A DNA stretch of 64,000 bases from Planctomycetia bacterium (lineage in GTDB: Bacteria > Planctomycetota > MHYJ01 > WSZJ01). Within the stretch, counting starts at the first letter, position 1. Every line of letters begins with the position of its first letter. This document shows positions 23,868 through 59,659 of this stretch, piece after piece. The stretch covers positions 8,214 through 72,213 of the forward strand of contig JADLHC010000130.1 of the NCBI GenBank assembly GCA_020849035.1, given 5' to 3'. Both the position numbers and the translations under genes were made by a program. The notes beneath the pieces are model-generated. The model made no database searches. It worked only from the letters and a program-made list of their open reading frames with translations, and was not told the origin of the DNA.

Positions 23868-24033
23868 GCGGGCGGGTGCGCGGGTGCGCGGGTACGCGAG
23901 TGCGCGGGAGAGAAGAAAAACGGCAACCGAGCGATCTCGGTTGCCGTCGTTGTTGACCCGCCTACCCGCGTACTCGCGCACCCGCGTACCCGCGCACCCG
24001 CGTACTCGCGTACCCGCGTACTCGCGTACCCTA
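23868..24033. repeat. nested palindrome: outer inverted arrays of an 8-bp tandem unit (GGGTGCGC / ACCCGCGT) flanking a terminator hairpin
   Basis: left arm gggtgcgcgggtgcgcgggtacgcgagtgcgcggg; right arm acccgcgtactcgcgcacccgcgtacccgcgcacccgcgtactcgcgtacccgcgtactcgcgtaccc (about 8.5 units); between convergent genes. Confidence 0.7.
23921..23946. terminator. bidirectional rho-independent terminator hairpin
   Basis: cggcaaccgag-cgat-ctcggttgccg (11-bp stem) preceded by agagaagaaaaa and followed by tcgttgttg, giving a U-tract on either strand. Confidence 0.65.
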
Positions 24034-34381: not shown

Positions 34382-34513
34382 TCCGGAATTTTCGTCACCG
34401 GATCCGCTTCCCGCCGTAAAGGCCGATGCTGAGGGAATCTTTGGAGGGAGGACCGGCGGGCGGCGCAGGCTCCGTCGTCACGGCGCGAGCCCCGCCCGCC
34501 GGCATGCATCGAG

Positions 34514-35738: not shown

Positions 35739-35806
35739 TCTCCCGCCTTGGGCGCGCCCCACCCCCGGCGTTACCATCCCCACTTCACCCACGCCGAGGA
35801 GTCCCC

Positions 35807-37216: not shown

Positions 37217-37322
37217 AGGGTTGATAGGTTGAGAGGTTGAGGGGGCCGCCATGCGGTCCGGAGGGCTCCCATGCGTAACCCTGATCCCCTCAACCCTTCA
37301 ACCCATCAACCTATCAACCCTC
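37212..37322. repeat. inverted arrays of 8-bp GTTGA(R)GG tandem units flanking a 40-bp spacer; embeds both convergent stop codons
   Basis: gttgaagg gttgatag gttgagag gttgaggg ...spacer ccgccatgcggtccggagggctcccatgcgtaaccctgat... ccctcaac ccttcaac ccatcaac ctatcaac cctc; TGA of 35807-37216 and TCA (minus-strand TGA) of 37314-38693 lie inside units. Confidence 0.75.
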
Positions 37323-38693: not shown

Positions 38694-38699
38694 GCGAGT

Positions 38700-43120: not shown

Positions 43121-46100
43121 TGAAGAGCTCGACCGTGATCGCGTGCCTGCTCGCGCTGTTCTTCACGGCCTGCGGCAAGCCGCCCGTGCCGCCGCGGCCA
43201 GCTGTGCCGCAACAGCCGCCCCAGGGCGACCCGCCGCCGCGCGATCCCCCGCCCGCGACTCCCGCTGCATGGGCGCCCCGCGCAACTCCGATCGAAGGCG
43301 ACATCGTCGTCGCCGTGATCGACACCGGCGTGGACGCGACGCACCCGGCGCTGAAGGGCAAGGTCCTCGAGGGCGTCTCGCTCGCCCCCGTCCCCGGCAC
43401 GACGGAGGACGCGATCGGCCACGGCACGGCCGTCGCGGGTCTCGTCTGCGCCGACGCCGAAGACGACCAGTTCGACGGCGTCTGTGCGAAGCAGCCGGTG
43501 AAGATCCTCCCGATCAAGGTGACCGGCGACCTGGGCGCGGAGGCGCTGCCGACCGCCGTCGGCCTGGCCGTGACCGAAGCCGTGAAACGCGGCGCCCACG
43601 TCGTCTGCATCCCGATGGGCGGCTCGTTCACGACCGACGCCCTGGAGTCCGGGATGGCGCTGGCGAAGGAGAAGGGCGTGCTGGTGCTCGCCGCGGCGGG
43701 GATCGGGACGCCTGCGACGCACGACTTCTACCCGGCCGCCCACCCCTGGGCCATTTCCTGCACCGGCGAGCGGGAAGCGCGGACGGAGACGTTCGCCGGG
43801 CGCGAGATGCAGTGGTACTACCGCGCCGACTACGCGAACTGGTCCGGCAAGACGGAGCTCATGGGCCCGATCTTCGCGAAGGTCCTCGCCCCCGGAGACG
43901 GCTACGCGTCGCTGCAGGGCACGAGCGTCGCCTGCGCGCGTGCCGCCGGCCTCGCCGCGAAGCTCATCGCCGCGAACCGGAGCTGGAGCGCCCAGCGCGT
44001 GCGGGACGTGCTGACGCTGTCGGGGTCGCCGGACTATGCCGGTAACGCCTATGCGCACTGCCCCGCGCGCCATGTCGATGCGGAGATACTCGATGATGCG
44101 ACGAAGTCGCCGCCGAAGGAGAAGTCGGATCTCGCCGTGCTCTGGATAGAGCCGGAACCCTGGCCGAAGCCCGATCAGGCCTTTCGTGCACGAGTGGAGG
44201 TTCGGAACGTGGGGGCTGCCCCCGGCGCGGGAAGCGTCACCTTCCGGATTGCCTCGGAGAATGTCGAGGTGAAGGTCCCCATCAGTGAGTTGCTACCGGG
44301 CGAAGGTTGCACGGTCCGGATCCCTGTTCCAGGACTAAAGCAAGGCAAGTTCTTGAGTGAAGTCGAGGTCTTCGAGGACAAAGCGGCCAGCCTCGCGAAC
44401 AACCGGTTGATCGCGAAGCTCGCGGTGGATCCTCGCGACAACGCGGCAGGATGTGGGCTTGTCTGGCTTGAGGGGATGCGTGCCGATTCGGACGAGTTGG
44501 TCCTGCACGGGCTCGCCTCGAATCCGAACGATCGCGCTCTCGAGACGGCAATCTCCGTCGCCGTTGCGGAACCGGATGCCAGGCTGCAACTCCGTTTGAA
44601 TCCGTTCGAGTCGCGGTGGGTTCGGTTGCCCATGGTCATAGGCAAGCCGGGTGGCGGCAAGAAGGGCGTCGCCGTCGTCGTGAAGACCGTTGAAGAAGGC
44701 GAGTCCTTCGGGAACGTAACTGTCCTGCTCGATGTCTCCCGAACTACTTACTCACCGCAGTACGCCGACGTATGGGGATTGAAGGAGATCATCGTGGATG
44801 CGCCGGCTAGCATCTCTACGGCGCGCTCCACCCTTCCCATCATGCTGTTCACTCCCGAGATTCACACTGCGCAGCTCCCAGAGCGGTTCCTTTACGAGGA
44901 TGGGGACACCGGGGAGTTGTATGCAGGCTCCGGCCTCTGGTTGTCCGATGTGATGATTGACCTGCTGAGCGGTCCTCAGGCAGCCACCCACGTACCGCAG
45001 CCCAGGTTCGATCCGCACGTCCCAACCGGGCGATGCCTGTTCCGGGCCCACCAGGAACTCGGATCTTCCGTGCTCAGTGGTCCAGTCACATTCTGGAATC
45101 GAGGTCGGTCGGCCCGTGTGGAGAACTGGTGCGGAACGAAAGTAGGCCGTGACCAGTTCCTCGGCTGGAAGCGCCATGATGGCTGGCATGCGGTCATTGT
45201 CGTTCCACGCGAAGACGTCGAGTACTTCGCGCAGCAGGACTATGACCGGGTCAGGGATGAGTACTTCAGGGTTGCGGTCCATTACTTCTCCCTCGCGAAG
45301 CACCCCAGCGTCACCAACTCGAAGCGCCGCGGCTACGACGAACGGACCGAGGAACAGGACCAGGAACTCTGGCAGGAAACCGTCCTCCGCGTCACGTTTA
45401 ACGTGGATCCCCCGAGGCTGGATGACAGGGGGCACTACTACGACGTGCACGTCCACACGGCGGCGGAGTTCTCGCGCGACGCCGTGGAGCCCCGGCTGGC
45501 CTTCGGCGGGCCGCCGTGGATGATCGCGCGGAGCGCCCATGCGATGGGGTTGATCGACGACGAGGATCTGCTGACGGTTCTGCTCCGCGTTCATCCGGCG
45601 GGCCAGGCGTTCGCCGCGCGATGGAACTTGCAGCTCGGCGAAGACGTGCTCATCACGACCGACCACAACTGTTTTCTCTCCGACACGGACGAGCCCACGG
45701 CTGCGCCGTGGGGCGGGAGATTCGGCGGGAACGAGATCGGCGTCCTGCGCGAGTCGTTCGGACGCTGCGACAACCAGGAGCTCTCGATGGCCAAGCCGTT
45801 CGCGGCCACGGGCGCGATGCACGCCCTCGTCTACGGCGCGGAGCCGATGGAAGGCCCGTGGCACGGCGGCCGCGGCATGCGCGGCATGCTGGCGGCGATC
45901 CGGGACACGCTCGAAGCCGTGGCGCTGACGGATCGCGCCATGGACTACCTCGGCTGGCACCCGAAGACGAAGAGGCTGAAACCGCCGACGTGGGTCATCG
46001 CGAAGCTGCTTCACCTGCTCAAGTACGGCGCCGGCGTGACGGAGCAGCAGAGCGCCGAGGTCCGGGACGGCCTGCAGGAGTGCCTGAAGTCCGTCCTGGA

Positions 46101-48741
46101 CCAGCACACGCGGCGGGACATCGATCCGTCCCTGATCCGCAGGTTCTGCGACATGTGGGGGGACACTTCCCAGGCGGACCTGCGGGCGTTGCTGGACCAG
46201 ATCGACGCGGTGCTCGAGTCCGCCGAACACCGGCCGGAGAAGAACCCGTGGGACGTCGTCGCGACGGAGGACCGCATGGCACGCGACGATGCCGCCTACG
46301 TCGCCGCCCACCCGTTCCTCGGGACGAAGTCCTTCCGCCACGCCGACGACGTCGCGCGCTCGACCTCGACAGGGGATCGCGAGGCTCGGGGAACCCCCTG
46401 GATCCAGGAGGGGCTTCCCCTCGGTCCCGGCGACCTGGCGTGGCTCGAGGGCGAGCTCAAGCGCGCCGCGAACCTGGCCGGGATCCACCGCAACGCCGCG
46501 CGTTATCCGCACCGGTTCCCGTTTCGCGGCGTGCAGCTCTGGAACGAGCCTCACTTCTACGCGACCGCCCTCGACAGCCCGAACGACCTCACGATGCTCA
46601 ACATCTGGCGGACCGGCGTGCTGAAGCCGCAGCCGAAGTGGTTCGACGAGCTGGGCTTCGGCGTCCACTACTACCTGAAAGAGCTCGTGCAGCCGGGGTT
46701 GCGCTGGTCGTTCGAGCCCGACCTGCGGCGCGAGGACGGGGCGACGCGGCTCCTGCTGCGGAAGCTGTTCCACTACGCGGGAAGCGACGCGCATGGCAGC
46801 TTCAACTTCACGACGGGCGTCGGCGCCTCGATGCTGACGGAGCCGCGTTTCGAAGCGATCTTTGCCCTGCTCGGGCACGGCCACGGCACGGAGACGCACA
46901 CGTCGCACTACGGGGCGGCGCGGGTGTACGCGGAGAAGGAGTCGCTGGACGAGGTGCTGGCGGGGCGCGTCGTGTGCACCGACGGGCCGGTGGTCTGGCC
47001 GGAGCTGGACACGGACGTGAAATTCGACTCGCTGGCGCTGCTCTGGCACGACAGCTGGCGCGCGGCGAGCCAGGGGATCAACCGGGACGGCGAGATCGGC
47101 GGCGGCGGGGACTTCGACGGCGCGCGGACGGCGCTCGCGCGTCGGGGCTGCCCGGACATGGTCCTGCGCTGGCGCGCGGCCGGCGATCGAGGGCTGCGCG
47201 GGCCGGTCCGCCGCATCGAGTGCTACCGCGTGACCGCGTCGCAGGACCGCGTCCCCCGCGCGACGCGCGGCATGCCGCTGCCGTTCCTCGAACCTGCCGT
47301 CACCGCGCCCTGCGCGGAGCACGCGGACACGCAGTTCGCGCTTCTCGGAAGCGCCCTCGGCCCGGGGGAGCCGCAGGCGCTTCTCGTGGCCGGCTACACG
47401 GCGGAGGAGGACCGGGCGCTGTTCGACGTGGAGCAGCGGCGCTGCCTGGCGAACCCGATCTGGGTATCGACGGTGAAGATCGGGGCGACGGCGGCGCCGG
47501 TGGTCGCGGACGGGAAGGCGTTCATTCCGCCGGGTGCGCTGATCGCGACGTTCCGGACGGACCATTCGGGGGCGGACGTCGGGCCGGGCGGGGCGGGGAA
47601 GGGCGCGCCGCCGGTCGTGTGGGCGAGGCAGCTGGACGTGAAGGGGGACAGCGTGCTGGGGCGGTGGCGGCTCAAGCCGGTCTGGCGCGGCGATGCCGTC
47701 GGTTACTGGGACAACGAGGAGCGGCAGATCGGCGGGAAGGTCCTGCGGGTGGCGGACTGCCTGATGACGGCCGTGAACGAGGAGCCGATTCCGCTTCGGC
47801 CGGACTGGTATCCGATCGAGGGAGTGGACACGTTCGCGATCATGTGGGAGAAGCCGCAGGACGCGTTCGGGAACGTGCTGAACGCGGTGGCGGACCTGCT
47901 CGAGGTCGCGGTCCCGGCGGGGACGGTGACGACAGGGGATCCGGGCTCCCCCGGCGATCCGGGCGTGGAGCCCGAGCCGAAGCCCGTCGAGTCCGGGCGC
48001 GGCCCGAACGGGGGACCTCCCGACACGGCGACCGTGCAGGTGCGGCCCGGGGAGACGGTGCAGTTGCCGAAGGGTGGGACCTGCGACGGGAAGAGGATTC
48101 CCCCCGGGGACTGGACGGTCCCGGATCTTCCCGCGGCCGGCGTGTCGCTCGTCGTTTCGGCCGGCGGGCAGACGCTGACGATCCTGCTCCGCGAGACGCC
48201 GTCCCCCTCTCCTGCATTCCTGGACCAGACGACCCGCGGTTTCTACGGCGCCGCGCCGACGCCCGGTCAGGGGCCCGCGACCGTGTCCCTCAAGAACCAC
48301 ACCCAGAAGACGCTCGAGGCGCCCGTTCCGGTCGTCGTGTCCGGCTCCACCTGCGTCTTCTCCGCACCGCTTGCGGAGCCCGGCGCCTGCGACGTCACCG
48401 TGATCCAGGGTGGGGCATCAAAGACAACGTCGATCGAGGCCGTCGCGCCGAGAATCGCATGGGACCAGCCGGACGCGCAGCCGGGCGAAACCCGCGTGCT
48501 CCGCGTCACGCTCGAAGGCGCGAAGTCGCCCGGCGACTGGTCGCTCTCGGGGACCGTCGAGATCGCGAACGGACAGGTGATGTCCGTCGCAGACCCCGCG
48601 CGCATCGCGCTGAAGGGGCCCGTGCTGACGCTGGACGCGCTGCCCGCCTCCGTCCGCGACATCGCGCAGGTCCAGGCGCAGCAAAGCGGGACGATGATCG
48701 CGACGGCCCGGCTGCGGGTGAGGAGGAACGCGGAGAGGTGA
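43120..48741 (+). CDS. giant (1873 aa) lipoprotein: N-terminal S8 peptidase domain + CARDB-like domains + PHP-phosphoesterase-like motifs + C-terminal Ig-like region
   Basis: Lipobox LLALFFTACGK; GGGAGG RBS; TGATG overlap with upstream S8; S8 triad VAVIDTGVD / IGHGTAVAG / GTSVACARAAGL (oxyanion position AAGI); CARDB-like VEVRNVGAAPGAGSVTF; PHP-like motifs YYDVHVHTAAEFSRD, ITTDHNCF, HYAGSDAHGSFNF. Confidence 0.8.
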   Translation: MKSSTVIACLLALFFTACGKPPVPPRPAVPQQPPQGDPPPRDPPPATPAAWAPRATPIEGDIVVAVIDTGVDATHPALKGKVLEGVSLAPVPGTTEDAIGHGTAVAGLVCADAEDDQFDGVCAKQPVKILPIKVTGDLGAEALPTAVGLAVTEAVKRGAHVVCIPMGGSFTTDALESGMALAKEKGVLVLAAAGIGTPATHDFYPAAHPWAISCTGEREARTETFAGREMQWYYRADYANWSGKTELMGPIFAKVLAPGDGYASLQGTSVACARAAGLAAKLIAANRSWSAQRVRDVLTLSGSPDYAGNAYAHCPARHVDAEILDDATKSPPKEKSDLAVLWIEPEPWPKPDQAFRARVEVRNVGAAPGAGSVTFRIASENVEVKVPISELLPGEGCTVRIPVPGLKQGKFLSEVEVFEDKAASLANNRLIAKLAVDPRDNAAGCGLVWLEGMRADSDELVLHGLASNPNDRALETAISVAVAEPDARLQLRLNPFESRWVRLPMVIGKPGGGKKGVAVVVKTVEEGESFGNVTVLLDVSRTTYSPQYADVWGLKEIIVDAPASISTARSTLPIMLFTPEIHTAQLPERFLYEDGDTGELYAGSGLWLSDVMIDLLSGPQAATHVPQPRFDPHVPTGRCLFRAHQELGSSVLSGPVTFWNRGRSARVENWCGTKVGRDQFLGWKRHDGWHAVIVVPREDVEYFAQQDYDRVRDEYFRVAVHYFSLAKHPSVTNSKRRGYDERTEEQDQELWQETVLRVTFNVDPPRLDDRGHYYDVHVHTAAEFSRDAVEPRLAFGGPPWMIARSAHAMGLIDDEDLLTVLLRVHPAGQAFAARWNLQLGEDVLITTDHNCFLSDTDEPTAAPWGGRFGGNEIGVLRESFGRCDNQELSMAKPFAATGAMHALVYGAEPMEGPWHGGRGMRGMLAAIRDTLEAVALTDRAMDYLGWHPKTKRLKPPTWVIAKLLHLLKYGAGVTEQQSAEVRDGLQECLKSVLDQHTRRDIDPSLIRRFCDMWGDTSQADLRALLDQIDAVLESAEHRPEKNPWDVVATEDRMARDDAAYVAAHPFLGTKSFRHADDVARSTSTGDREARGTPWIQEGLPLGPGDLAWLEGELKRAANLAGIHRNAARYPHRFPFRGVQLWNEPHFYATALDSPNDLTMLNIWRTGVLKPQPKWFDELGFGVHYYLKELVQPGLRWSFEPDLRREDGATRLLLRKLFHYAGSDAHGSFNFTTGVGASMLTEPRFEAIFALLGHGHGTETHTSHYGAARVYAEKESLDEVLAGRVVCTDGPVVWPELDTDVKFDSLALLWHDSWRAASQGINRDGEIGGGGDFDGARTALARRGCPDMVLRWRAAGDRGLRGPVRRIECYRVTASQDRVPRATRGMPLPFLEPAVTAPCAEHADTQFALLGSALGPGEPQALLVAGYTAEEDRALFDVEQRRCLANPIWVSTVKIGATAAPVVADGKAFIPPGALIATFRTDHSGADVGPGGAGKGAPPVVWARQLDVKGDSVLGRWRLKPVWRGDAVGYWDNEERQIGGKVLRVADCLMTAVNEEPIPLRPDWYPIEGVDTFAIMWEKPQDAFGNVLNAVADLLEVAVPAGTVTTGDPGSPGDPGVEPEPKPVESGRGPNGGPPDTATVQVRPGETVQLPKGGTCDGKRIPPGDWTVPDLPAAGVSLVVSAGGQTLTILLRETPSPSPAFLDQTTRGFYGAAPTPGQGPATVSLKNHTQKTLEAPVPVVVSGSTCVFSAPLAEPGACDVTVIQGGASKTTSIEAVAPRIAWDQPDAQPGETRVLRVTLEGAKSPGDWSLSGTVEIANGQVMSVADPARIALKGPVLTLDALPASVRDIAQVQAQQSGTMIATARLRVRRNAER

Positions 48742-49832
48742 CGTCCCGCGCTCGTTCCTTTGACGCGCGCCGCAGTTCTCCCTTTCATTCCCCCGTGAAC
48801 CGCGAACGCAAGGACGCCGTCGCCGCCGCCGCGCAGACGCTTTACGACGCGAAGCCCTGGGAGACGCTCGAGGGCGAGGATTTCTTCGGCTTCGTCCACC
48901 CGCCTACCGGCCTCCGGGCCTGCGTCTCCGTGATCGGCTCCGCCGGCCAGACCTTCGGCCTGTCGATCTGGATGGGTGACGGCGGATTCGAGCAGGCGGC
49001 GCGCTTCGTCGCCGGCGCAACCGGCCCCGACGAAATGGCCCTGTCTTCCGATCTCCTCTCGCTCACTTTCGAGCGCGGCCCCGACCCGGCCTGGCGCGGG
49101 CGCAAGGACCCGACGTTGCTCGCCCCGATCCGCGCGGGAAAGCGCACGCTGTACCCGAGCGTGTGGCGCAAGCCCGCCGGCCGCATGCAGGAGGCGCCCG
49201 ACAACGCGCACGCGCTTTTCCTCGAAGCGCTGGCCCTCGCGATCCCGCGGCTGATCGCCGCCGGGCGCATGGTCCCCGCGGGCAAGGCGGGAGCGCTTGA
49301 GATCCCCGCCTTCACACTTCCGGCGGATCCCGGCGGCGAAATCCTCGACGCGGAGCCGTGGAGGGTTTCGGAGAAGCGCCTCGAACCGGAGACGCCGGCG
49401 ATCGAGGTCCCCGAGGACGTCCGGGCACGCCTCCGGCTGCGCCGCGCGACAGGCGAAGTCGCGGTCTCTCTCGCGCTCGTCCCCATGACCGTCCAGGACG
49501 ATCCGGTCCGCCTGTTGATCGTGGCCTCGCAGGAGGGGCTGGTCCTCGACGCCTGCCCGATGCTCGGACCGTCGGCCGTCCGCGATTCGGTCCACCGCCT
49601 CCTGCGCGCCTTCTCGGGCCTCCAGGCCGGCGGCGCCGGACGCGACGTGCCTCTCCCCGAGGTGATCATCGCCGACACGCCGGACCTCCACCGCGCGATC
49701 GAGCCGGTCCTCGCCCCATTCGGGGTCACGGTGCTCTTCGAGTCGCCATTCGAGCCGCTCGACCGGATCAAGGATGCGTTCGTGGAGAAGATGCTGTCGG
49801 AGCGGCCAGGGGGGAGGATGAAGGGGAAATGA
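48738..49832 (+). CDS. hypothetical protein, translationally coupled to giant lipoprotein gene
   Basis: GTG start overlapping TGA of upstream gene (GTGA) with AGGAGG 10 nt upstream; 364 aa, no signal peptide, no family recognised. Confidence 0.5.
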   Translation: MTSRARSFDARRSSPFHSPVNRERKDAVAAAAQTLYDAKPWETLEGEDFFGFVHPPTGLRACVSVIGSAGQTFGLSIWMGDGGFEQAARFVAGATGPDEMALSSDLLSLTFERGPDPAWRGRKDPTLLAPIRAGKRTLYPSVWRKPAGRMQEAPDNAHALFLEALALAIPRLIAAGRMVPAGKAGALEIPAFTLPADPGGEILDAEPWRVSEKRLEPETPAIEVPEDVRARLRLRRATGEVAVSLALVPMTVQDDPVRLLIVASQEGLVLDACPMLGPSAVRDSVHRLLRAFSGLQAGGAGRDVPLPEVIIADTPDLHRAIEPVLAPFGVTVLFESPFEPLDRIKDAFVEKMLSERPGGRMKGK

Positions 49833-49931
49833 GCGGCCCGGGACGCATCGGACGCGGCATGCCGCGTTGACGGCACAGCGACAGCCGGTCGGCTCCTTCG
49901 TGCATCGACGGGCCTCCAGGCGGCGGCCTGC

Positions 49932-52013
49932 TCAGCCCCCAAGCTGCGCCCACGCCGCCCACACGCTGGCCGGCGCTCCGGCGGCGAGGGCGCTGCGCTG
50001 GGCGGCGGAAGCGGAGAAGCCGCCGGTGTAGTAGGCGGCCATGAAGTCCCGGAGGGTCGCGTGGTCCTCGAGCGGCCAGAGCGTGGCGACGACGGAAGCG
50101 GCGCCGGCCCTGAGGAAGGCGCGCGGGAGGCCGACCATCTCCTCGGCGCGGGTCCAGTCGCCGCGGGCGGAGTCGCAGGCGGACAGGACGGCAGCGCGCG
50201 TTCGGGAGAGGTCCAGCGCGGCGAGGTCGCTCGCCGTGAGGCGGTCGCCCTTCGCGAGCTGCAGGTGCGACAACTCGGGCCGGTCCGGGCGCCAGACCGC
50301 GTGCGTGGCGAAGTGAAGGACGTCGTGTCCCGGAGCGGCGCGCATCACGGCGTCGCGAGTGGCCGCGCCGGCCTCGAGGACCGTCAGGCGCTGTCCGAAG
50401 ACGCGCGCCACGGCCTCCCGTTCGCCCGCCGCGTTCGGGAGCGAGCCCGTCGGGTCCTCCACGAACAGGCACCGCGCGCGCTTCGCGTCGAACGCCCGCT
50501 GCCGTGACCGGAGCGTGGCGAAGACGCTGGCGGAAGGGGCGGTGACGACGTCGAGAGAAGCGGCGGCGGGGCGGCCGCGGAGGCGCAGGGCGGGGAAGGG
50601 GACGACGTGGAGGGCATCGTCAGGGACGACGACGAGGCGCGAGAGGCCGTCCAGCTCCAGGGGCGCGAGAAGCGCGTCGCCGAGGAGGGCGAAGTGCCAG
50701 TCGGCGACGGCGCTTCGGCCGGCGCGTTCTTCGCGGCGCGCGAGGGCGAGGACGCGGTTGAGGTCGTGCGCGGCCTCGAGGGCTTCGGCGGCGGGCAGGC
50801 GTACGGCGCGGAAGCTGCCGCGGGTGAAGACGAAGGCGAGGAGGTCGTCGCCCACGCGCTGGTACTGGACGAGGGCCTCCGCCGGGCGCAGCGCGGCGCG
50901 CACCTGCGCGGCGGCGAGCGGCGCGCGCGGCTGGACGCGGGCCTGCGCGAGGCGCTCCTTTTCGTAGCGGCGCAGCGCGAGGCGCTCGTCGTCCTCGAGC
51001 CGGCGGAGGCGCCCGGGGTCGCGGCCCTCGCGCTGCAGCCGCTCGATTTCCGCGCGCAGCGTCTCGAACCGCGCGCGCTCCGACGGCGCGAGGTGCGACA
51101 GGTCGCGCGGCCGCGGCGCCGCGACGAAGTCGAGAAACGCCCGCGCCCGCGCCGCTTCCGCCGCGCGGAACGCCCCCGCCCACCGCCCGGCCTCCGCTTC
51201 CAGCGCCACCCGCATCTCGTGCACGCCGTGCGCCGCGCCCGCGAACGCCGCCCGCCCCTCGTCCAGGTCCCGCCCTCCCCGCCCCTCCTCGATCGCCCGC
51301 TCCCCCCGCCTCAGCTCCCGCCGCGCCTCGTCGCGCTTCCCCAGCCCCAGCCACGCCCGCGCCCGGTACGCAAAGGCCCTCGGCCGGTTCCCGGGATCGA
51401 GCGTGAGCACCGCGCGGTAGTCGCGGAGCTCGAGATTCGCCCACGCGACGTTCACGGGGTCCTTGAGGAGGGGAAGGGCCTTTCGCGGGCGGCCCTCGCG
51501 GAGGAGCGCGATGCCGATCGTCTGGCGCGCGGTGGCGGCCGCTTTCGGATCGTCGGTGGCGCGGAGCGCGCGCTCGGCCCATCGGCGCGCCTCGGCGTGG
51601 CGGCCGAGGTAGCTGCAGCTGACGCCGCGCGTGTTCCAGACCTTGGCGCGCGCGTGGTCGTCGGGGGCGGCGGCCTCGGCCTCGTCGCAGAGGCGAAGGG
51701 CGGTCTCGTGGTCGCCGAGCATGCCGCAGGTCATGGCGACGCCGCGCAGGGCCTCCCAGAGCGCGGGGTCGCCGCCGAGGGAGCGGTAGATGGCGCAGGC
51801 GTTCTGGAACATCGCGCCGCCGGCCTCCGGGTCGCGCCGCGCGATCGTGGCATTCCAGCCCGCGAGGCGCCAGCGGTGGCCGATGTCCCGCATCACCGCG
51901 GGGTCGCGCCCCGAGAGATCGCGCGCCCGGTAGAACGCCCGCCGCGCCCCGAGCACGTCGCCGCCCGCGAGCCGCTGGTCCGCCTCCGCGAGCGTCTCCT
52001 CGACCGCGCTCAT
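49932..52013 (-). CDS. TPR + CHAT-domain (caspase-like) protease
   Basis: N-terminal TPR helices; C-terminal CHAT signature with His (DVLHFATHAVW) and Cys (AAVLSACDSARG) dyad; ATGA overlap with upstream sigma gene on minus strand. Confidence 0.8.
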   Translation of the reverse strand: MSAVEETLAEADQRLAGGDVLGARRAFYRARDLSGRDPAVMRDIGHRWRLAGWNATIARRDPEAGGAMFQNACAIYRSLGGDPALWEALRGVAMTCGMLGDHETALRLCDEAEAAAPDDHARAKVWNTRGVSCSYLGRHAEARRWAERALRATDDPKAAATARQTIGIALLREGRPRKALPLLKDPVNVAWANLELRDYRAVLTLDPGNRPRAFAYRARAWLGLGKRDEARRELRRGERAIEEGRGGRDLDEGRAAFAGAAHGVHEMRVALEAEAGRWAGAFRAAEAARARAFLDFVAAPRPRDLSHLAPSERARFETLRAEIERLQREGRDPGRLRRLEDDERLALRRYEKERLAQARVQPRAPLAAAQVRAALRPAEALVQYQRVGDDLLAFVFTRGSFRAVRLPAAEALEAAHDLNRVLALARREERAGRSAVADWHFALLGDALLAPLELDGLSRLVVVPDDALHVVPFPALRLRGRPAAASLDVVTAPSASVFATLRSRQRAFDAKRARCLFVEDPTGSLPNAAGEREAVARVFGQRLTVLEAGAATRDAVMRAAPGHDVLHFATHAVWRPDRPELSHLQLAKGDRLTASDLAALDLSRTRAAVLSACDSARGDWTRAEEMVGLPRAFLRAGAASVVATLWPLEDHATLRDFMAAYYTGGFSASAAQRSALAAGAPASVWAAWAQLGG

Positions 52014-53278
52014 GCGCGCCGGCCGCGGATCCACTGCATCGCCCGCTCGCGAACCCGGTCGCGGTCCAGCCCCTCCGCGCCCCGCGTCACGACGTCGGGG
52101 CCGCCGAGCGGCGTGGCGGGCAGCGCCTTCAGCGTCTGCGCCGGAACTTCGAGGACCTCGGCCAGCCGTTTCAGCAGCGCCGCGTCCGGTTTCAACTCGT
52201 CGGAGAGCAACCGGCGGAACTGCGACGGCGTGAGGCGCAGCGCCTTGCGCGCCGACTCGCACTCGTCGGCCGTCCGCAGCCGCGCCTGCACGAACGCTCC
52301 GAGCGTCGTGAACGCCGCCTCGAGCGGCGCCACGCCGAACGCCGCGCGCACGAGGGCGATCGTCCGCCGCGCCCGCGCGAGCAGCGGATCCTCCGCCGCA
52401 CCGCCGATGTCGAGCACCTGCGCGAGGACCTTGCCACGCCCGCGCAGCGTCGCCTGCCGGTACAGGTCGTGCGCCGCCGAGAGCAGAAGCGCCCGCGTCT
52501 CTTCCAGCCCGAGTCCCGACGCCTTCGCCGCCGCCGCCAGGTCGCCCGTCAGCCACGCGCGGTACGCCGCCCGCGCCGCGGGGTCCTTGATCTTCTCCGG
52601 GTCGAGCCGCTCAGACATGGCGGGCCCCAGCGCCGACAGCACGGCCTCGGCCTTCGTCCCGCCGCGCCGCTGCCACTCCTCGAAGAACGCGGCCGTCGCG
52701 CGCTCCTTGAGCTTGCGGATCGCGTCGGGCTTCCTGTCCGGGTAGAGGTCCTGCAGCTGCGGCCCCGAGAAGTCGAGCAGCACCATCCACACGAAGGCGA
52801 CGCGGTCGGATTCGCGAAGGGCCTTGAGCGCGGCGGTCGCGATCTCGAGGACCTCGATGAGCGTCACGTGCGCCATGGAGCCGGGCGGGATGACCGGTGC
52901 CGCGTTGCGGTCCTCGCGCGGCTCGCCGTCCTCGTCCACCGGCACGCCGACGAGCTTGACCTTGCGGCGGATCCCCGACGTCATCGCGTTCACCAGGATC
53001 CGGCACGCGTAGGTCCGGAACTGCGCCCCGCCGTCCCGCCGGTAGTCGCAGATCGCCCGGCCGAGCACGTCGCCGACGAAGTCCTCCAGCGAACCCATCG
53101 CGGTGTTCGCCAGCAGGCGCGCGATCGCTCGTGTCCTGCCGTAGACGACGCCCTTCAGGATCGGCAGGTTTCGCCGGTAGAGCTCGTCGAAGGCCGCCTT
53201 CTGCCGCACATCGCCTTGCGTCCGCGCGGCCTCCACGAGGTCCTCGTCCGGCGCCTGCGACAGGGAGAGTTCGCTCAT
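52010..53278 (-). CDS. ECF-like sigma factor with ~230-aa C-terminal extension
   Basis: Region-2-like DEDLVEAARTQGDVRQKAAFDELYRRNLPILKGVVYGRT...EDFVGDVLGRAI; region-4-like ESDRVAFVWMVLLDFSGPQLQDLYPDRKPDAIRKLKERA; long helical C-terminal tail; 422 aa. Confidence 0.7.
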   Translation of the reverse strand: MSELSLSQAPDEDLVEAARTQGDVRQKAAFDELYRRNLPILKGVVYGRTRAIARLLANTAMGSLEDFVGDVLGRAICDYRRDGGAQFRTYACRILVNAMTSGIRRKVKLVGVPVDEDGEPREDRNAAPVIPPGSMAHVTLIEVLEIATAALKALRESDRVAFVWMVLLDFSGPQLQDLYPDRKPDAIRKLKERATAAFFEEWQRRGGTKAEAVLSALGPAMSERLDPEKIKDPAARAAYRAWLTGDLAAAAKASGLGLEETRALLLSAAHDLYRQATLRGRGKVLAQVLDIGGAAEDPLLARARRTIALVRAAFGVAPLEAAFTTLGAFVQARLRTADECESARKALRLTPSQFRRLLSDELKPDAALLKRLAEVLEVPAQTLKALPATPLGGPDVVTRGAEGLDRDRVRERAMQWIRGRRA

Positions 53279-53468
53279 CGGTGCTATTCGAAGAAGGCAC
53301 GAGCGTAGCCGCGTGACGGGGCGGTTTCAAGCAAGCGGGGGGGCGGGTCGGGCTCATGGCGCTGGCACTCCGAGCGGACGGTGCGACTTACGCCGGAAAC
53401 GGGCGGGTGTGACGGGGAATCCGGATGGCGGGGGAGCGGTGTCACGGTGCGGGGGCGGTCGCGTAGGT

Positions 53469-53505
53469 GGGGTTGAGCGGTTGATGGGTTGAGGGGTTGA
53501 GGGAG
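53469..53505. repeat. single-arm copy of the 8-bp GGTTGAGG tandem repeat
   Basis: ggttgagc ggttgatg ggttgagg ggttgagg gag, in divergent promoter region between 52010-53278 (-) and 53534-54478 (+). Confidence 0.65.
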
Positions 53506-53533
53506 TGGGCCCGCGGGAACTTCGATCGGAGAG

Positions 53534-54478
53534 ATGACCATGGAACCGACGATGGACAGCCAGGACGGGGCGATCCGGAAGCTGCTGGAGACGTGCCGGC
53601 CCGGCGCGGCCCTCAGCCGGGGCAACCTGACAGTCGTGCCGCTCTTCGGGCCGCCTTGCGGGCCCGAGGTCACGCTTCTCCGCGACGCCCTCCGCGATGG
53701 CTCGGCGGAGATCACGGAAGTCGGCGAGCAGGGAAGCGTCAACCTCCTGCTCGTCCGCAATCGAGGCGACCGCCCGCTCCTCCTCCTCGACGGCGACCTC
53801 GTCGTCGGCGGCAAGCAGAACCGCGTCGTCAACGCCACCTTCCTCGTCGGCGCCCGCTCCGAGGCGCGCATCCCCGTCAGTTGCGTCGAGCACGGCCGCT
53901 GGCGCCACGAGGGGAAGCGATTCGAGGCGTCCGCGGCCTCGCTCAATCTCGGCCTGAAGTCGGCGAAGTTCGCGCGGCTGATGGAGTCGCTGAAGCGGGA
54001 CGGCCGGTACGACGCGGACCAGGGGGCGGTCTGGGACGACGTCGCGAGCTACTCGGCGCGGCGCGGGGTGGCGTCGCGGACCGACGCGCTCGCCGACGCC
54101 GTCGAGGTCTCCCTCCCCGGCGCGGAGCAGCTGGCGCAGGGCATCCGGCCCGCCGAAGGCCAGACCGGGCTCGCCGTCTTCATCAACGGCCGCTTCGCGG
54201 GCCTCGACCTGTTCGGCCGCCCTGCGGTCCTCGCGGCGGCGCACGACGCGCTTGTTCGGGCCAGCGCCCTCGAGGCGATGGACCAGGCCGGCGGGACGCG
54301 CGCCGCGCGCCGGGTGTCGGCGCGCGCCGTGCTCGGTCGCCTCGCGCGATCCGCCAAGGCCGGGCACCCTGCGCCCGGCGAGGGGACCAGCGTCCTGCTC
54401 GAGGATCGCCGTCTCGCCGGCTGCGCGCTCGTCAGCCCCGACGGTCCCGTTCACCTCGCGGCGTTCGCGGTCCGATGA
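53534..54478 (+). CDS. hypothetical protein
   Basis: 314 aa; divergent from sigma gene; no family recognised from sequence alone. Confidence 0.5.
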   Translation: MTMEPTMDSQDGAIRKLLETCRPGAALSRGNLTVVPLFGPPCGPEVTLLRDALRDGSAEITEVGEQGSVNLLLVRNRGDRPLLLLDGDLVVGGKQNRVVNATFLVGARSEARIPVSCVEHGRWRHEGKRFEASAASLNLGLKSAKFARLMESLKRDGRYDADQGAVWDDVASYSARRGVASRTDALADAVEVSLPGAEQLAQGIRPAEGQTGLAVFINGRFAGLDLFGRPAVLAAAHDALVRASALEAMDQAGGTRAARRVSARAVLGRLARSAKAGHPAPGEGTSVLLEDRRLAGCALVSPDGPVHLAAFAVR

Positions 54479-54672
54479 GCCCCGCCCGCTTCTGCCACCG
54501 CGAACGAGGCCGCGCCGGCGCGGCGTCGCGCCTCGTCCGCCACGGCCTCCGCCCGCCCGCCGGCGCCGCGGTGCGGCTCGCCTGGGGCGCGGCCGAGGTC
54601 GGGCTGCTCGTGCTCACCGTGACGGGTGCGCTCCTCGTGGCACGCGCGCTGCTGGGGAAGCGACGCTGCTGA
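54475..54672 (+). CDS. small hypothetical membrane protein (65 aa)
   Basis: ATGA start/stop overlap with upstream gene; C-terminal hydrophobic helix GLLVLTVTGALLVARALLG; weak. Confidence 0.3.
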   Translation: MSPARFCHRERGRAGAASRLVRHGLRPPAGAAVRLAWGAAEVGLLVLTVTGALLVARALLGKRRC

Positions 54673-54736
54673 ATTCCCGTCACGCCGGCCGGCTTCGTGC
54701 GAAGGAAGGAAGGCACTTCACTGGGAGGGGACGCCG

Positions 54737-55870
54737 ATGACGCTTCCGTACGAACACGCCGAAGTTCTCGCGCTGAACCTCGTGTCTCGCGGCGAAGGAA
54801 CGCACCCCGTCACCGGCGCGCCGGGAGTGCAGGACGCCGTCGTGCGATTCCCCGCGGAGAAACGCGGCTCCGTCGAGGTGGCGCTTCGCGATGGCGGAAA
54901 GACGGTGCACCGGTTCGTGTTCCATTTCGGCGCCCCCGACGAGGAGATCCCGGCTGCGGAGCCCGCCCGCAAGGAGCCGCCCCTCGACGTCAAGCTCGAG
55001 GAGCTCCGCGGCGCCGTCGCGGCGAACCCCGAGGACGCCGGCGCCTGGAACTCGCTGGGAAGCGCCCTCTTCAATGCCGGCCGCGCGCGCCAATCGGTCG
55101 GGCCGCTGCGGAAGGCCGTGGAGCTCGCGCCGAAGAACCCGTACTACGCGCTCGAGCTCGGCCTCGCGCTGTCGCGGGACCGGAACTACGCCGAGGTCGA
55201 GCGGGTGCTCGAGTCCGTCGTTGCCGCCGACCCGAAGCTGGAGATGTGGCCCTCGCACCCCGGCGTCATCGCGATGGTGAAGCTGGCGCACGCCCGCTGG
55301 AAGCTGGGGAACGCCGCAAAGGCCGTCGCGACGCTCCGTCCCACACTTCCGCTCGTCACCGGGATCCTCCGCGACCTGGGCGCCTACGCGATGGACGCCG
55401 GCCGCCACGCGGAGGCCGTCACGTTCCACTCCGCCGCCGGCAGCCTCGACCCCTCGATGGAGGACGCCCTCCACGGCGCCGGCCGCTCGCTGCTCTGGCT
55501 CGGGCGCGCGAAGGAAGCGGTCCCCTGGCTCGAGAAGGCGACGCGCGCCAAGCCGTCCTGCGACGACGCCTGGTACGACCTCGCCCTCGCCTACGCCCGC
55601 CTCGGCCGCCGCCGCGACGCCCGCGGCGTCCTCCGCCGGCTCCTCCGTCGCAACCCGAGGCACGCCCCTGCCTGGTACGAGCTCGCCTGCCTCGACGCCC
55701 TCGACCGCCACCGCGCCTCCGCCTTCCGCCACCTCACCCGCGCCGCCCGCTGCGGCTGGAACCGCGTCGCCCACGCGCAGGTCGACCCGGACCTCGCCGG
55801 CCTCCGCGAGGACCGGCGGTGGGCCGGGGTTGTGGAGGAGATGCGGAAGGCGGGGCCGCCGCCGAGATGA
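54737..55870 (+). CDS. TPR-repeat protein
   Basis: 377 aa from MTLPYEH with GGGAGGGGA RBS; multiple TPR helices (AWNSLGSALFNAGRARQSVGPLRKAVELAPKNP...). Confidence 0.6.
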   Translation: MTLPYEHAEVLALNLVSRGEGTHPVTGAPGVQDAVVRFPAEKRGSVEVALRDGGKTVHRFVFHFGAPDEEIPAAEPARKEPPLDVKLEELRGAVAANPEDAGAWNSLGSALFNAGRARQSVGPLRKAVELAPKNPYYALELGLALSRDRNYAEVERVLESVVAADPKLEMWPSHPGVIAMVKLAHARWKLGNAAKAVATLRPTLPLVTGILRDLGAYAMDAGRHAEAVTFHSAAGSLDPSMEDALHGAGRSLLWLGRAKEAVPWLEKATRAKPSCDDAWYDLALAYARLGRRRDARGVLRRLLRRNPRHAPAWYELACLDALDRHRASAFRHLTRAARCGWNRVAHAQVDPDLAGLREDRRWAGVVEEMRKAGPPPR

Positions 55871-55994: not shown

Positions 55995-57497
55995 CTATGC
56001 ATCCAGCGCCGGCACGCCGGCCTTCGCGCACGTCGAGCGCATGGACTTGGTGATCTGTCGAATGCTCGCCTCGGCCTTGATGGATCCCAGGACTCCGGTC
56101 CCTTCCGACCATCGCTCGCGGGCCGGTCCCCCGCGGCCCGTGATGGCGAAGACCGCCGCGAGGCCGCAGAGGTGGACGCCCTCGAAATGCCGGTTTCCCG
56201 TGGCGCGATCGAGCTCCAGCGCCTTCTCGTAAGCGCGTTCGGCCTCCCCGGCGCGGCCGGTTTCGAGGTACAGCCCCGCCAGGTTTCCCGTCGTGATCCC
56301 CTCGTTCCTGCGCTGGCCGATCTCGCGATGGATCGCGAGCGACTCCGCGTAGGTTCTCTCGGCGAGCTCGATCCGGCCGGCGTCCTTGAAGCAGCCGGCC
56401 AGCGCGTCCAGCGTCGTGCCTTCGCTGCGGCGGTTCCCGACCTCCCGGTGGATGGCGAGCGCCTGCCGCAGCAGGTGTTCCTCCTCGTCCGGCCGCCCGA
56501 GGTCCCGGGACAGGACCGCGAGGTTCTGCAGGGCCGCCCCCTCGCCCCTCCGGTTGCCCACTTCGCGGTGGATGGCCAGCGCCTGCCTGCCGGTCTGCTC
56601 GGCGAGCTCCGCACGGCCGCTTTCGGAGTACACCGTGGCCAGGTTCCCGATCGCCAGGCCCTCGCTGCGGCGATTGCCGACCTCGCGGTGGATCCGGATG
56701 GCCTCCCGGAAGGTCTCCTCGGCCAGGGCGACGCGCCCCGAGTCCTGGTAGAGGATCGCCAGGTTCCCCAGCACCAGTCCCTCGTTGCGGCGATCGTCGC
56801 TTTCGCGATGAAGCGCGAGCGCCCGGAGGAACGTCCGCTCCGCCGGCTCGGCGCGCCCGGTCTCCAGCTGGGTGATGCCCATCGTCCCCAGGAGCGCGCC
56901 CTCGCTGCGCAGATCCCCCGTTTCGCGGGCGATCTCCCGCGCCTGCTCCAGCAGGCCCTCGGCAAGGTCCATGCGCCCGAGGTGCTGGTGGACGGTGCCG
57001 AGCATCCACAGGGCCGTCATCTCCCCACGCCGCGCGCCCCGCCGCCGATGCACCTCGAGCGCCTCCTCCAGCAACGGCAGCGCCCGCTTCGCCCCCCCGC
57101 GGAGCAGCGCCGCCGACGCGGCACGGACCAGCGCCGTTCCCCGCTCCTCCGGGGCGCAGACCCCCGCCAGTTCCGCCCAGCACGCCTCCTCCTCAGGCCG
57201 GAACGTGCGCTGCGCCACCTCCGCCGCTCGGCGGAGGTAGAGGGGAAGCAGCGCCGGTGCCGCGACGCGGGCGTGCATCGCCAGCTCCAGCGCGAACGGG
57301 TCCGTCGCGTGCCCGTCGACTGCGGACTCCTCTCCCGCTTCCAGCGGCGGCGGCTCCGCCGGGCGCCCCCCGCACACGCCCTCGATCGTCGCCAGGGCCA
57401 GCGCGTGCAGCCGCGCGCGGTCGCCCGGGATCTGGACCTGGTACGCGGCGTCGCGGAGGAGGGCGTGGCGGAAGAGGTAGAGGAGTTCGGCGGACAC
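55995..57497 (-). CDS. TPR-repeat protein, paralog family A (third copy)
   Basis: LYLFRHALLRDAAYQVQIPGDRARLHALALATIE near N-terminus and STCAKAGV C-terminus; many GNRRSEG-type TPR units; start set at GTG 57497 by analogy with paralogs (ORF from ATG 57686 adds 63 unlikely codons). Confidence 0.65.
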   Translation of the reverse strand: MSAELLYLFRHALLRDAAYQVQIPGDRARLHALALATIEGVCGGRPAEPPPLEAGEESAVDGHATDPFALELAMHARVAAPALLPLYLRRAAEVAQRTFRPEEEACWAELAGVCAPEERGTALVRAASAALLRGGAKRALPLLEEALEVHRRRGARRGEMTALWMLGTVHQHLGRMDLAEGLLEQAREIARETGDLRSEGALLGTMGITQLETGRAEPAERTFLRALALHRESDDRRNEGLVLGNLAILYQDSGRVALAEETFREAIRIHREVGNRRSEGLAIGNLATVYSESGRAELAEQTGRQALAIHREVGNRRGEGAALQNLAVLSRDLGRPDEEEHLLRQALAIHREVGNRRSEGTTLDALAGCFKDAGRIELAERTYAESLAIHREIGQRRNEGITTGNLAGLYLETGRAGEAERAYEKALELDRATGNRHFEGVHLCGLAAVFAITGRGGPARERWSEGTGVLGSIKAEASIRQITKSMRSTCAKAGVPALDA

Positions 57498-57699
57498 GCG
57501 TGAAGTGAACCGCGGGTTCCGCCGGATGTCGAGCGGGCGGACCAACGCACCTCCGGAGATGCTCGTCGAGCAGGGGGACCGTGAACCTGTCGCCGGCCTT
57601 GGCGGCCATCCGTTCGACCTCGTTGAAAAGCTCGGTCTCTCCCGCGACGAGCCTCGAACCGCTGTCAGGGGGAGGGATGCCCGCATCGGGGAAAGCGGA

Positions 57700-57871: not shown

Positions 57872-58399
57872 TCAGTCGCGCTGCAGCCCATCGGCGAACC
57901 CCTGCCGGCTGATGTCCTCGCGGTACTTTCTCGTGAAGTGCCTCGCCAGGTCCGGCTGAACTCGCCCGATGGCGGCCAAGATCTCCTCGAGCGAAATCCC
58001 GGCCTCGGACCGGCGTTTCATCCCGAGCACGCGAAACGTGATGTGGTCGGCAGAGCACAACCGGTAAGCGGGCTCGGACGGCTGCGACAGGAGCCAGGCC
58101 AGCGAAGCGGTTTCTCCCGGGTTCATGTCCGGGCGCCAGGCCGCGGGAACGGACTCGATGAGCTGCTGGATCTGCGCGAGGGCGACGCTCACGATCTTCA
58201 CATTGCCGGACGCGACGTCGGGAGCCAGGTCAATCTCGTGGCGATTCCCGTCGGCGTCCTCGTAGAAACGCGCCTCGTCGCGCACCGTCTCGACCATCGT
58301 GATCTCGCCGTGCGAGACCAGGTGCCGCCACGCGCCGCGCCGCCAGACCTCGATGACGACGTCCGCATCAAGGAGAAGGAATCGGAATCGCTTCGCCAT
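57872..58399 (-). CDS. PIN-like / DUF4411-like small protein (putative toxin partner of HTH-ImmA/IrrE)
   Basis: 175 aa; N-terminal FLLLDADVVIEV resembles PIN/DUF4411 acidic start; overlaps upstream HTH-ImmA gene by 32 nt. Confidence 0.45.
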   Translation of the reverse strand: MAKRFRFLLLDADVVIEVWRRGAWRHLVSHGEITMVETVRDEARFYEDADGNRHEIDLAPDVASGNVKIVSVALAQIQQLIESVPAAWRPDMNPGETASLAWLLSQPSEPAYRLCSADHITFRVLGMKRRSEAGISLEEILAAIGRVQPDLARHFTRKYREDISRQGFADGLQRD

Positions 58400-59483: not shown

Positions 59484-59659
59484 GGCGGCTCCGAAGTTCT
59501 GGATAACAGATGAACATTAACCTATCTTTTGAACAAGTCAAGGCAGTGGCCTTGAAAACCAGAGAAATCTCCTTCGCCTCGCCGCCAGGGACAGGCCGTG
59601 CGGTTCGCGCCCAGTTTGCCTCCGGCTCGCTATCATGTCGCAACGAACCGACACCGCCG

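Follow-up and report, generated by a model that had tools for sequence, protein, structure and literature searches.

An ECF41-like promoter motif accompanies a conserved pair of genes for a long-tailed ECF-type sigma factor and a TPR-CHAT protein in Planctomycetota

The stretch of DNA analysed here, which we call the window, comprises 64,000 nucleotides (nt) of contig JADLHC010000130.1 from a Planctomycetia bacterium, with a G+C content of ~70%. On its reverse strand lies a gene for a protein of 422 amino acids (aa) resembling the extracytoplasmic function (ECF) sigma factors, overlapped at its stop codon by a gene for a protein that combines tetratricopeptide repeats (TPRs) with a caspase-like CHAT protease domain. 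An earlier note, made from the sequence alone, had suggested that the protease controls the sigma factor, possibly by cleaving a long C-terminal extension. We found that the two genes form a conserved pair, and that a sharply defined promoter motif, GTCAC-N16-CGTA, is found upstream of the pair and of a variable set of other genes; this motif and its distribution are the main new result.

When sequences upstream of the sigma gene are aligned across 16 loci, two conserved elements emerge: a distal element, GTCAC-N16-CGTA, ~110-135 nt before the sigma start codon, and a proximal, sigma70-like element, TTGA(A/C)N-N17-TA..CT, ~25-45 nt before it. The distal motif is present as an exact copy upstream of the sigma gene in 11 of the 14 loci with sufficient upstream sequence, and as one-base variants in two more. 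The window holds three exact copies where 0.15 are expected, a number reached by none of 100 shuffles, and the related loci (140 kb) hold 25 against a shuffle mean of 0.78. The spacing is likewise strict, with 28 copies at 16 nt in the loci and window combined and 0-2 at each other spacing from 12 to 21. The logo of 30 sites reads Y-GTCAC-N15-G-CGTA, and YGTCAC-N16-CGTA is nearly the same as the signature of ECF41 promoters, defined experimentally as TGTCACA-n16-CGTC (PMC3426412). The motif travels with the sigma gene through unrelated genomic contexts, as would be expected if the gene were autoregulated, and we infer that the sigma factor itself reads GTCAC-N16-CGTA. The earlier note had recommended looking for an autoregulatory ECF promoter of the GGAAC type; such a promoter is indeed predicted upstream of the sigma gene, but it is of the GTCAC-N16-CGTA type instead. 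One-mismatch copies of the motif need to be interpreted cautiously, as they occur at chance frequency overall, and the copy at 54679-54703 is for this reason suggestive only.

Further elements surround the motif. A GGAWT/AWTCC element is found at most 22 nt upstream of the -35 in 13 of 32 sites (~40%, against a background of 3.5%; p ~2e-11); it is often GGAATTCC-like, and in its palindrome-like form, GGAWTYCC, it adjoins the -35. The additional helix-turn-helix (HTH) units of the sigma protein, described below, are candidate binders of this element. As a strict sigma-70 consensus scan of positions 49700-54800 gave no match, the basal promoter predicted in the window, TTGAAA-N17-TACGCT, is put forward on its conservation across loci. 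Between the ECF-type and the sigma70-like elements lies a conserved non-coding block of ~40 nt (GTCCGCCnGGAGTGCCAGCGCCATGAGCCC; window ~53331-53388, reverse strand), with matching regions in L001, L002, L005 and L007; it may serve as an operator or leader, or contain a short upstream open reading frame (ORF).

Gene contexts were compared from look-ups of contigs, a single genome scan and a single scan of metagenomes, the last of which employed a hand-made degenerate DNA pattern for VRA[AS]FG...TLGxF and gave nine loci. In 11 of the 14 loci that are informative, a CHAT orthologue follows the sigma gene at +1. It lies directly downstream in the window and in L001, L002/3, L005/6, L007, L012, L013/14, L019, L020, L023, L024 and L027-29, and in L008 the start of the CHAT gene is visible at the contig end. 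Sigma factors paired in this way are 31-65% identical to that of the window, and the two genes overlap, by ATGA or GTGA or by 10-16 nt, in L001, L002, L007, L012, L013, L019, L020, L023, L024 and L027. The co-occurrence check proposed in the earlier note thus gave a positive answer: the pairing holds, in most cases with translational coupling, even where the sigma factors share only 31% identity, and the ATGA overlap described for the window is confirmed at 52010-52013. Reciprocal look-up of two further members of the CHAT group found a sigma gene upstream in L027, with a 4-nt overlap, and a deleted sigma ORF in L030, where a sigma70-like promoter and a remnant, 'MPVLNLRE', are left before the CHAT gene (1-2405). 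In L018 (2400-10750) both genes have decayed to fragments in three frames. The CHAT orthologue group is itself sharply bounded, with 11 proteins at or above 285 bits and the next match at 134 bits.

The 422-aa protein, which is identical to NCBI 'hypothetical protein IT452_09795' from a Planctomycetia metagenome-assembled genome (MAG), is most likely a functional ECF-type sigma factor. Among 19 aligned family members, Pfam recognises Sigma70_r2 in 17 (best E 1.6e-8) and Sigma70_r4_2 in 11 (best E 4e-6), and good preservation throughout the family is seen for the signature of region 2.2-2.4 (EDLV..., F.TW/YL..I..N......RR) as well as for the HTH of region 4. The window protein alone scores 23.9 bits with Sigma70_r2 (cutoff 24) and 22.9 with TIGR02937 (cutoff 42.9), has no Pfam match to region 4, and shows neither region 3 nor region 1.1. 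Regions 2 and 4, which the earlier note had called recognisable, are accordingly evident at the level of the family, while in the window protein taken by itself region 2 falls just short of its cutoff and region 4 goes unmatched. Alignment of profiles with the Protein Data Bank (PDB) relates sigma2 weakly to region 2 of SigH and SigE (E 0.04-0.1). The 19-sequence alignment served as input for an AlphaFold model, which is all-helical and separates sigma2 from sigma4 by a disordered linker (mean predicted local distance difference test, pLDDT, 69, with 82-92 in sigma2 and ~80-88 in the XRE-like part; predicted template modelling score 0.49). Its top Foldseek matches in the PDB are the ECF sigma factors AlgU, sigmaE, SigH, BldN and SigW (prob 0.98-0.99, E ~0.1). 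The linker carries a motif, PPGSxAH (P132-G133-S134-x-A136-H137), which is invariant in seven close homologues and not conserved in more distant members.

The family is rare. A word-indexed search gave seven close homologues of 59-65% identity, and an exhaustive profile search of 1.84 billion protein representatives yielded, apart from ~13 full-length clusters (416-444 aa), hardly anything. All records that bear a taxonomic name come from Planctomycetota MAGs of the classes Planctomycetia and Brocadiia, and a search of the genome collection gave only three Planctomycetota MAGs. A long antisense ORF in the window, 50607-52745 on the forward strand, was taken as an artefact of high G+C content.

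The long C-terminal extension noticed from the sequence at the outset is borne out, as a conserved part of the protein, by the Pfam counts across the family, the Foldseek matches and the alignments. The order of parts is sigma2, linker, sigma4, an HTH-like unit, R279-G280, an indel-rich linker, a helix with an XRE-like HTH (~297-385) and a tail helix; R279-G280 is invariant in the family alignments and directly precedes the indel-rich linker. Conservation is higher in the tail subdomains (mean pairwise identity 0.48-0.49) than in sigma2 and sigma4 (0.34-0.35). The tail is all-helical in the AlphaFold model, and Pfam finds HTH_3 in 6 of the 19 family members (best E 2e-4) and HTH_31 in 4 (best E 1.4e-3); the window protein itself has no match to an XRE-family HTH (PF01381 or PF13560). 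Foldseek relates the C-terminal 54-73 residues to P22 C2, CylR2 and NHTF, with prob 0.98 but E ~2.5, and a profile of the tail has no meaningful relatives in the PDB, its matches to CRP being spurious. An ECF41-type SnoaL domain was considered and rejected, with no SnoaL match in any of the 19 members. The main text of the 2021 ECF classification mentions no group with such an extension or with a CHAT context (Casas-Pastor 2021).

The protein encoded by the second gene belongs to the CHAT peptidase family (Pfam PF12770, clan CD; 154.7 bits against a cutoff of 24) and has its His/Cys dyad, from which protease activity is predicted. The dyad, which the earlier note had described as intact, consists of His571 (in HFATHA) and Cys613 (in LSACDS), both invariant in an alignment of seven orthologues. 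Matches to TPR_12 and TPR_2 precede the CHAT domain, with TPRs at residues ~60-250. Pfam recognises no anti-sigma domain and no zf-HC2 in this protein, and zf-HC2+CHAT proteins of the DdvA-like kind appear only among distant CHAT matches (P0112, P0116). Its maximum hydropathy over 19 residues is 1.31, and no hydrophobic segment of the length of a membrane helix is present in the sigma factor, the CHAT protein or the two upstream proteins. The module, lacking transmembrane segments in all its proteins, is accordingly predicted to be cytoplasmic. A profile of the CHAT protein matches only TPRs in the PDB, and no solved CHAT chain, Csx29 included. Against PADLOC-DB v2, the CHAT protein gives only a weak, partial match to BovA (E 7e-6), and the sigma factor matches no anti-phage system model.

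Beyond the pair itself, the motif marks a set of predicted targets. The gene for an ARPP-1 domain protein is preceded by it in two independent loci, the window and L018; ARPP proteins have been predicted to act in ADP-ribose-related conflict systems, in which they pair with WYL and HIRAN proteins (PMC9503650). A divergently transcribed gene for a TPR protein is the third conserved member of the module. Its product is 46% identical between the window and L001 and L002, and L008 and L027 likewise have a TPR gene of comparable length (~338-388 aa) upstream in divergent orientation; in the window, the ARPP-1 gene is inserted between this gene and the sigma gene. The motif before the divergent TPR gene is exact in L001, a CGAA variant in the window and a CATA variant in L002 and L007. 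In L018, five exact copies precede intact genes for ARPP-1, HDAC-like, UvrD-like, Metallophos and RNase_H_2 proteins, so the regulon here is either orphaned or dependent on a copy located elsewhere. The motif also precedes an operon of Metallophos and SbcC-like genes in L010, an operon of ClpP and AAA genes in L013, and several small ORFs in related loci. The predicted regulon is small and varies between loci, and its gene content suggests a response to DNA damage or phage; the defence or signalling role raised in the earlier note is plausible from this context. The copy at 34394-34418 begins 13 nt after the end of a kinase gene and precedes the 220-aa ORF with weak TPR similarity and then a Transglut_core2-TPR gene (35525-37216), which is 82% identical to a gene beside the sigma-CHAT pair in L002, L003 and L007.

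Table 1. Coordinates in the window of the sigma-CHAT gene pair, its domains, associated promoter elements and neighbouring genes
Feature	Position	Strand	Details
ECF-type sigma factor gene	52010..53278	-	422 aa; ATG start, TGA stop
sigma2 domain	52964..53248	-	Residues ~11-105; Pfam Sigma70_r2 at residues 33-106; model pLDDT 82-92
sigma4 domain	52667..52876	-	Residues ~135-204; Sigma70_r4_2 in 11/19 members, model helices, Foldseek full-length alignments
Conserved C-terminal extension	52013..52666	-	Residues 205-422, ~220 aa; alignments, Pfam, Foldseek
HTH-like three-helix unit in the extension	52439-52591	-	Residues 230-280
XRE-like HTH in the extension	52124-52306	-	Residues ~325-385
ATGA stop/start overlap of the sigma and CHAT genes	52010..52013	-	cgcATGAgc
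TPR-CHAT caspase-like protease gene	49932..52013	-	693 aa from the ATG overlapping the sigma stop
CHAT domain	50022-50684	-	Residues 444-664
His571 codon	50301-50303	-	
Cys613 codon	50175-50177	-	
GTCAC-N16-CGTA, predicted autoregulatory promoter of the sigma-CHAT operon	53389..53413	-	~110 nt upstream of the sigma gene; GGATTCC precedes
TTGAAA-N17-TACGCT, predicted basal promoter	53302..53330	-	~25 nt before the sigma start; 16-locus upstream alignment
Divergent GTCAC-N16-CGTA copy	53441..53465	+	68 nt upstream of the ARPP-1 gene
Third exact copy	34394..34418	+	GGAATT precedes; upstream of a 220-aa weak-TPR ORF (34514-35176)
One-mismatch copy, GTCAC-N16-CGAA	54679..54703	+	GAATTCCC precedes; 34 nt before the TPR gene start
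GGAWT/AWTCC example	53414-53425	-	
GGAWT/AWTCC example	34380-34392	+	
GGAWT/AWTCC example	54668-54677	+	
ARPP-1 domain protein gene, predicted regulon member	53534..54478	+	314 aa; Pfam ARPP-1 274.6 bits
Divergent TPR protein gene, third conserved member	54737..55870	+	377 aa from the Met at 54737
S8 gene	41543-43120	+	
Giant S8 gene	43123-48741	+	
DUF7309/DUF6930 gene	48738-49832	+	

We infer that the TPR-CHAT protein is a post-translational regulator of the sigma factor, and give roughly even chances to a self-contained cytoplasmic module in which an autoregulated sigma factor with a small regulon is released through cleavage of its tail. The sigma factor would be made at a basal level from the sigma70-like promoter and would then amplify its own operon from the ECF41-like YGTCAC-N16-CGTA. 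It would also drive its neighbours, the divergent TPR and ARPP-1 genes here and, in other loci, SbcCD-like, UvrD-like, RNase H-like, HDAC-like and ClpP/AAA genes. The TPR-CHAT protein would be its cognate regulator, placed in the +1 slot usual for anti-sigma factors and produced in fixed ratio. The extension may keep the sigma factor inactive or tethered until the TPR domain senses a signal and the His/Cys dyad is activated. By analogy with known protease-sigma systems, the CHAT domain would most plausibly cleave the sigma tail, and the most likely direction and site of its action would be a cut in the extension, with R279-G280, before the indel-rich linker, as the candidate site, that releases an active sigma2-sigma4 core. 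A more specific form of this proposal, which we hold only tentatively and consider improbable, is a stand-alone immune or stress switch from caspase to sigma factor, independent of CRISPR and of cyclic-nucleotide sensors: the TPR domain would sense a cue from phage or DNA damage directly, and the sigma tail would be a fused inhibitor that also reads GGAWTYCC, such that cleavage converts a sigma factor bound inactive at its operator into an active one.

Several observations weigh against the release of the sigma factor by its partner. The support for cleavage or binding of the sigma factor by the CHAT protein is not direct, coming from gene position and published analogies, and if the CHAT protein activates the sigma factor, their autoregulated co-transcription would amount to unchecked positive feedback unless the protease depends on a signal. 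Three loci keep a full-length tail with something other than a CHAT gene downstream: a NERD-UvrD helicase gene at 8 nt in L010, a T2SSE ATPase gene in L009 and a 122-aa ORF in L022. Conversely, the CHAT gene of L030 persists, with the promoter, where the sigma ORF is deleted. The window sigma factor lies under the curated Pfam and TIGR02937 thresholds, the confidence of its model is moderate and uninformative on contacts between tail and sigma core, and the motif might conceivably be read by a different ECF sigma factor of these genomes. L030 and L010 (345-3381) are different contigs of the same assembly, GCA_900174565.1, and in L013 and L027, too, NERD-UvrD helicase genes are found, 1-3 kb upstream of the sigma-CHAT pair.

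The TPR-CHAT protein could instead be an anti-sigma factor or other negative regulator, an unlikely alternative in our estimate, which would either sequester the sigma factor through its tail or inactivate it by a cut in the sigma2-sigma4 linker at PPGSxAH that ends the response. Sequestration could follow the style of separase-securin or of DdvA, with release by signal-induced autoproteolysis. A translationally coupled +1 position is canonical for anti-sigma factors, and stoichiometric co-expression from an autoregulated promoter would provide the usual negative feedback of established ECF logic (Casas-Pastor 2021). DdvA is moreover an anti-sigma factor with a TPR-CHAT domain, PCaspase cleaves a sigma factor directly, and the linker motif is invariant in the close group. 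However, the CHAT protein lacks an anti-sigma domain, zf-HC2 and a transmembrane helix, the linker motif is not conserved in distant members, and it is the tail, not the linker, that is most conserved. About as unlikely is a pairing without any proteolytic relation, in which the CHAT protein would be a co-expressed effector, such as an abortive-infection protease acting on proteins of host or phage, and the sigma factor the island's transcription factor, a one-component regulator whose tail senses the signal. This alternative is kept alive by the loci in which the tail occurs without an adjacent CHAT gene (L009, L010, L022) and by that in which the CHAT gene survives without the sigma gene (L030); in addition, other partners at +1 or nearby, such as the NERD-UvrD helicase, look like effectors, ECF sigma factors with C-terminal extensions commonly have no separate regulator (Casas-Pastor 2021), and the neighbourhood is rich in defence-type genes. 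Set against it are the near-exclusive, reciprocal and coupled pairing, kept from 65% to 31% sigma identity, and the joint decay of both genes in L018, whereas defence islands usually exchange their effectors more freely.

That the 422-aa protein is a pseudo-sigma, a degenerate DNA-binding regulator that no longer binds core RNA polymerase and acts in the manner of PhyR or as an HTH repressor, seems very improbable; the motif would then be read by another ECF41-like sigma factor. Such a protein would fit the sub-threshold Pfam and NCBIfam scores of the window protein, a weak PhyR_sigma-like match in one of the 19 family members, and the presence of two extra HTH-like units together with the palindrome-like GGAWTYCC beside the -35 in 13 of 32 sites. 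It does not sit well with the preservation of the region 2.2-2.4 signature and region 4 HTH across the family, or with a motif that accompanies the gene from one unrelated context to another, as expected for autoregulation.

Release of a sigma factor by a CHAT protease has close parallels, although the module is set apart from Craspase, CalpL/PCaspase and DdvA because the defining features of each fail. Craspase (type III-E; Cas7-11, Csx29, Csx30 and CASP-sigma) likewise links a cytoplasmic TPR-CHAT protein genetically to an ECF sigma factor. In that system, Csx29 cleaves Csx30, which inhibits CASP-sigma, and relief of the inhibition turns on defence genes through motifs in the locus; the system occurs in Planctomycetota (Ca. 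Scalindua) (PMC10028731). Unlike Craspase, the window has no Cas7-11, no array of clustered regularly interspaced short palindromic repeats (CRISPR) and neither Csx30 nor Csx31 as a separate protein; the putative inhibitor here is part of the sigma factor itself, and this CHAT subfamily has no detectable sequence match to Csx29 or to any solved CHAT chain. Membership of Craspase was rejected on the lack of an array, of Cas domains among the neighbours and of a match to a solved CHAT structure. In Myxococcus xanthus, DdvA is an anti-sigma factor carrying a TPR-CHAT domain, and the DdvA-DdvS pair, which joins an ECF sigma factor to a TPR-CHAT partner with a conserved His/Cys dyad as here, controls a defence island (PMC11506125). 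DdvA, however, is an anti-sigma factor that spans the membrane once, its zinc-binding anti-sigma domain at the N terminus and its TPR-CHAT part in the periplasm, whereas the CHAT protein of the window is predicted to be soluble and its sigma factor has a 220-aa tail; a DdvA-type system was rejected on the hydropathy maximum of 1.31 and the lack of zf-HC2 or another anti-sigma domain.

In type III-B CRISPR systems, CalpL of CalpL-CalpT-CalpS cleaves CalpT and CalpS is released, and PCaspase of SAVED-CHAT/PCaspase-PCc-sigma cleaves PCc-sigma (bioRxiv 10.1101/2023.06.23.546230); as proposed here, an immune protease reprogrammes transcription through a sigma factor. These systems, which form part of CRISPR or cyclic oligonucleotide-based antiphage signalling (CBASS) loci, respond to cyclic oligoadenylate, which activates them via SAVED domains, whereas the present one has no SAVED, cyclase or CRISPR, and its putative sensor is the TPR domain. 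ECF41 and other sigma factors with extensions (PMC3426412; PMC7826278) share the plan of a sigma2-sigma4 core with a fused C-terminal regulatory domain and no classical anti-sigma factor. The ECF41 extension is SnoaL-like and ~100 aa long, whereas that described here is ~220 aa, helical and of HTH-like and XRE-like units; the conserved neighbours here are the TPR-CHAT and TPR proteins, whereas ECF41 has a COE gene, and no neighbour of the COE type (carboxymuconolactone decarboxylase, oxidoreductase or epimerase) was found. ImmR/ImmA, DdrO/IrrE and CapH/CapP are pairs in which an XRE-type repressor is cleaved by its partner protease. They resemble the present pair in placing an XRE-like HTH beside a dedicated protease gene, with control over genes of stress or defence. 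Here, however, a sigma factor carries the XRE-like unit as its tail, and a clan CD cysteine peptidase takes the place of the M78 metalloprotease. Full-text literature searches of limited coverage found no description of a CRISPR-independent cytoplasmic TPR-CHAT protein paired with a tailed ECF sigma factor.

Only recently have sigma factors under protease control been recognised as the means by which CRISPR and CBASS immunity acts on transcription (Craspase, CalpL, PCaspase, DdvA). If the proposed module is real, it would apply the same logic in an autonomous cassette of two to three genes with a directly sensing TPR-CHAT protein. The sharp motif predicts a regulon for each genome, which would make the module unusually testable in a heterologous host, and would give a first functional handle on ARPP-1 and on a type of ECF extension outside the published classification. 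Its general importance is limited, as the family is rare and all of its named records are from uncultured Planctomycetota.

The pair lies downstream of an S8/PHP operon and convergent with it, a position correctly given in the earlier note; the genes concerned encode a 525-aa S8 protein, a 1872-aa S8 protein and a DUF7309/DUF6930 protein. The idea that the pair might regulate or respond to this operon fared less well: no copy of GTCAC-N16-CGTA precedes the S8 genes in the window, and control of the operon by the sigma factor was rejected on these grounds, though a giant S8 gene recurs near the pair in two other loci. That of L027 (1-4568) adjoins the pair, and its product is 36% identical over ~1600 aa to the 1872-aa protein; that of L001 (16833 onward) encodes 1752 aa. 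The 1872-aa protein has C-terminal PHP-like HxH/DHN/GSDAHG motifs, which Pfam leaves unscored.

In L005, from a close relative, the pair sits between a gene for a 234-aa ECF-like sigma factor and an Alpha-L-AF_C gene, which adjoin each other directly in the window. The flanking genes are 76% and 88% identical between the window and L005, and the sigma and CHAT proteins 59% and 66%, which marks the module as mobile in position and faster-evolving than core genes. Searches of phage, plasmid and IMG/VR collections returned no relatives, and there is thus no sign of an origin in mobile elements. The window contains no CRISPR array and no Rfam families, and no Cas domains occur among the annotated neighbours.

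Between ~37 and 62 kb, the window resembles a defence island, with TPR_12/TPR_10 proteins, the two S8 proteins, the DUF7309/DUF6930 protein, the sigma-CHAT pair, a fusion of HTH and M78 domains and two HNH_2 endonucleases. The fusion of an XRE-HTH to Peptidase_M78 (58368-59483, reverse strand), 5 kb from the module, matches the PADLOC models of RmrA (6e-23) and capP/capH; it is followed by a 175-aa ORF without matches (57872-58399, reverse strand), and the HNH_2 genes lie alongside (59510-60655 and 61362-62285, forward strand). Here a second regulator under protease control may govern a defence operon. The reverse strand encodes, at 37314-40091 and 55995-57686, three TPR_12/TPR_10-rich proteins of 459-563 aa, one of them with a 120-bp tandem repeat (37498-37818), and similar TPR_12 proteins occur downstream of the CHAT gene in L002 and L007. 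The 234-aa ECF-like sigma gene of the window (29623-30327, forward strand) is followed after 10 nt by a gene for a 1347-aa Ser/Thr kinase with FG-GAP and TPR repeats (30338-34381, forward strand), so that an ECF sigma gene and a kinase gene stand together. Two intergenic 8-bp tandem arrays, GCGGGTGC x4.6 and ACCCGCGT x9.5, occupy positions 23872-24031 and are near reverse complements of each other.

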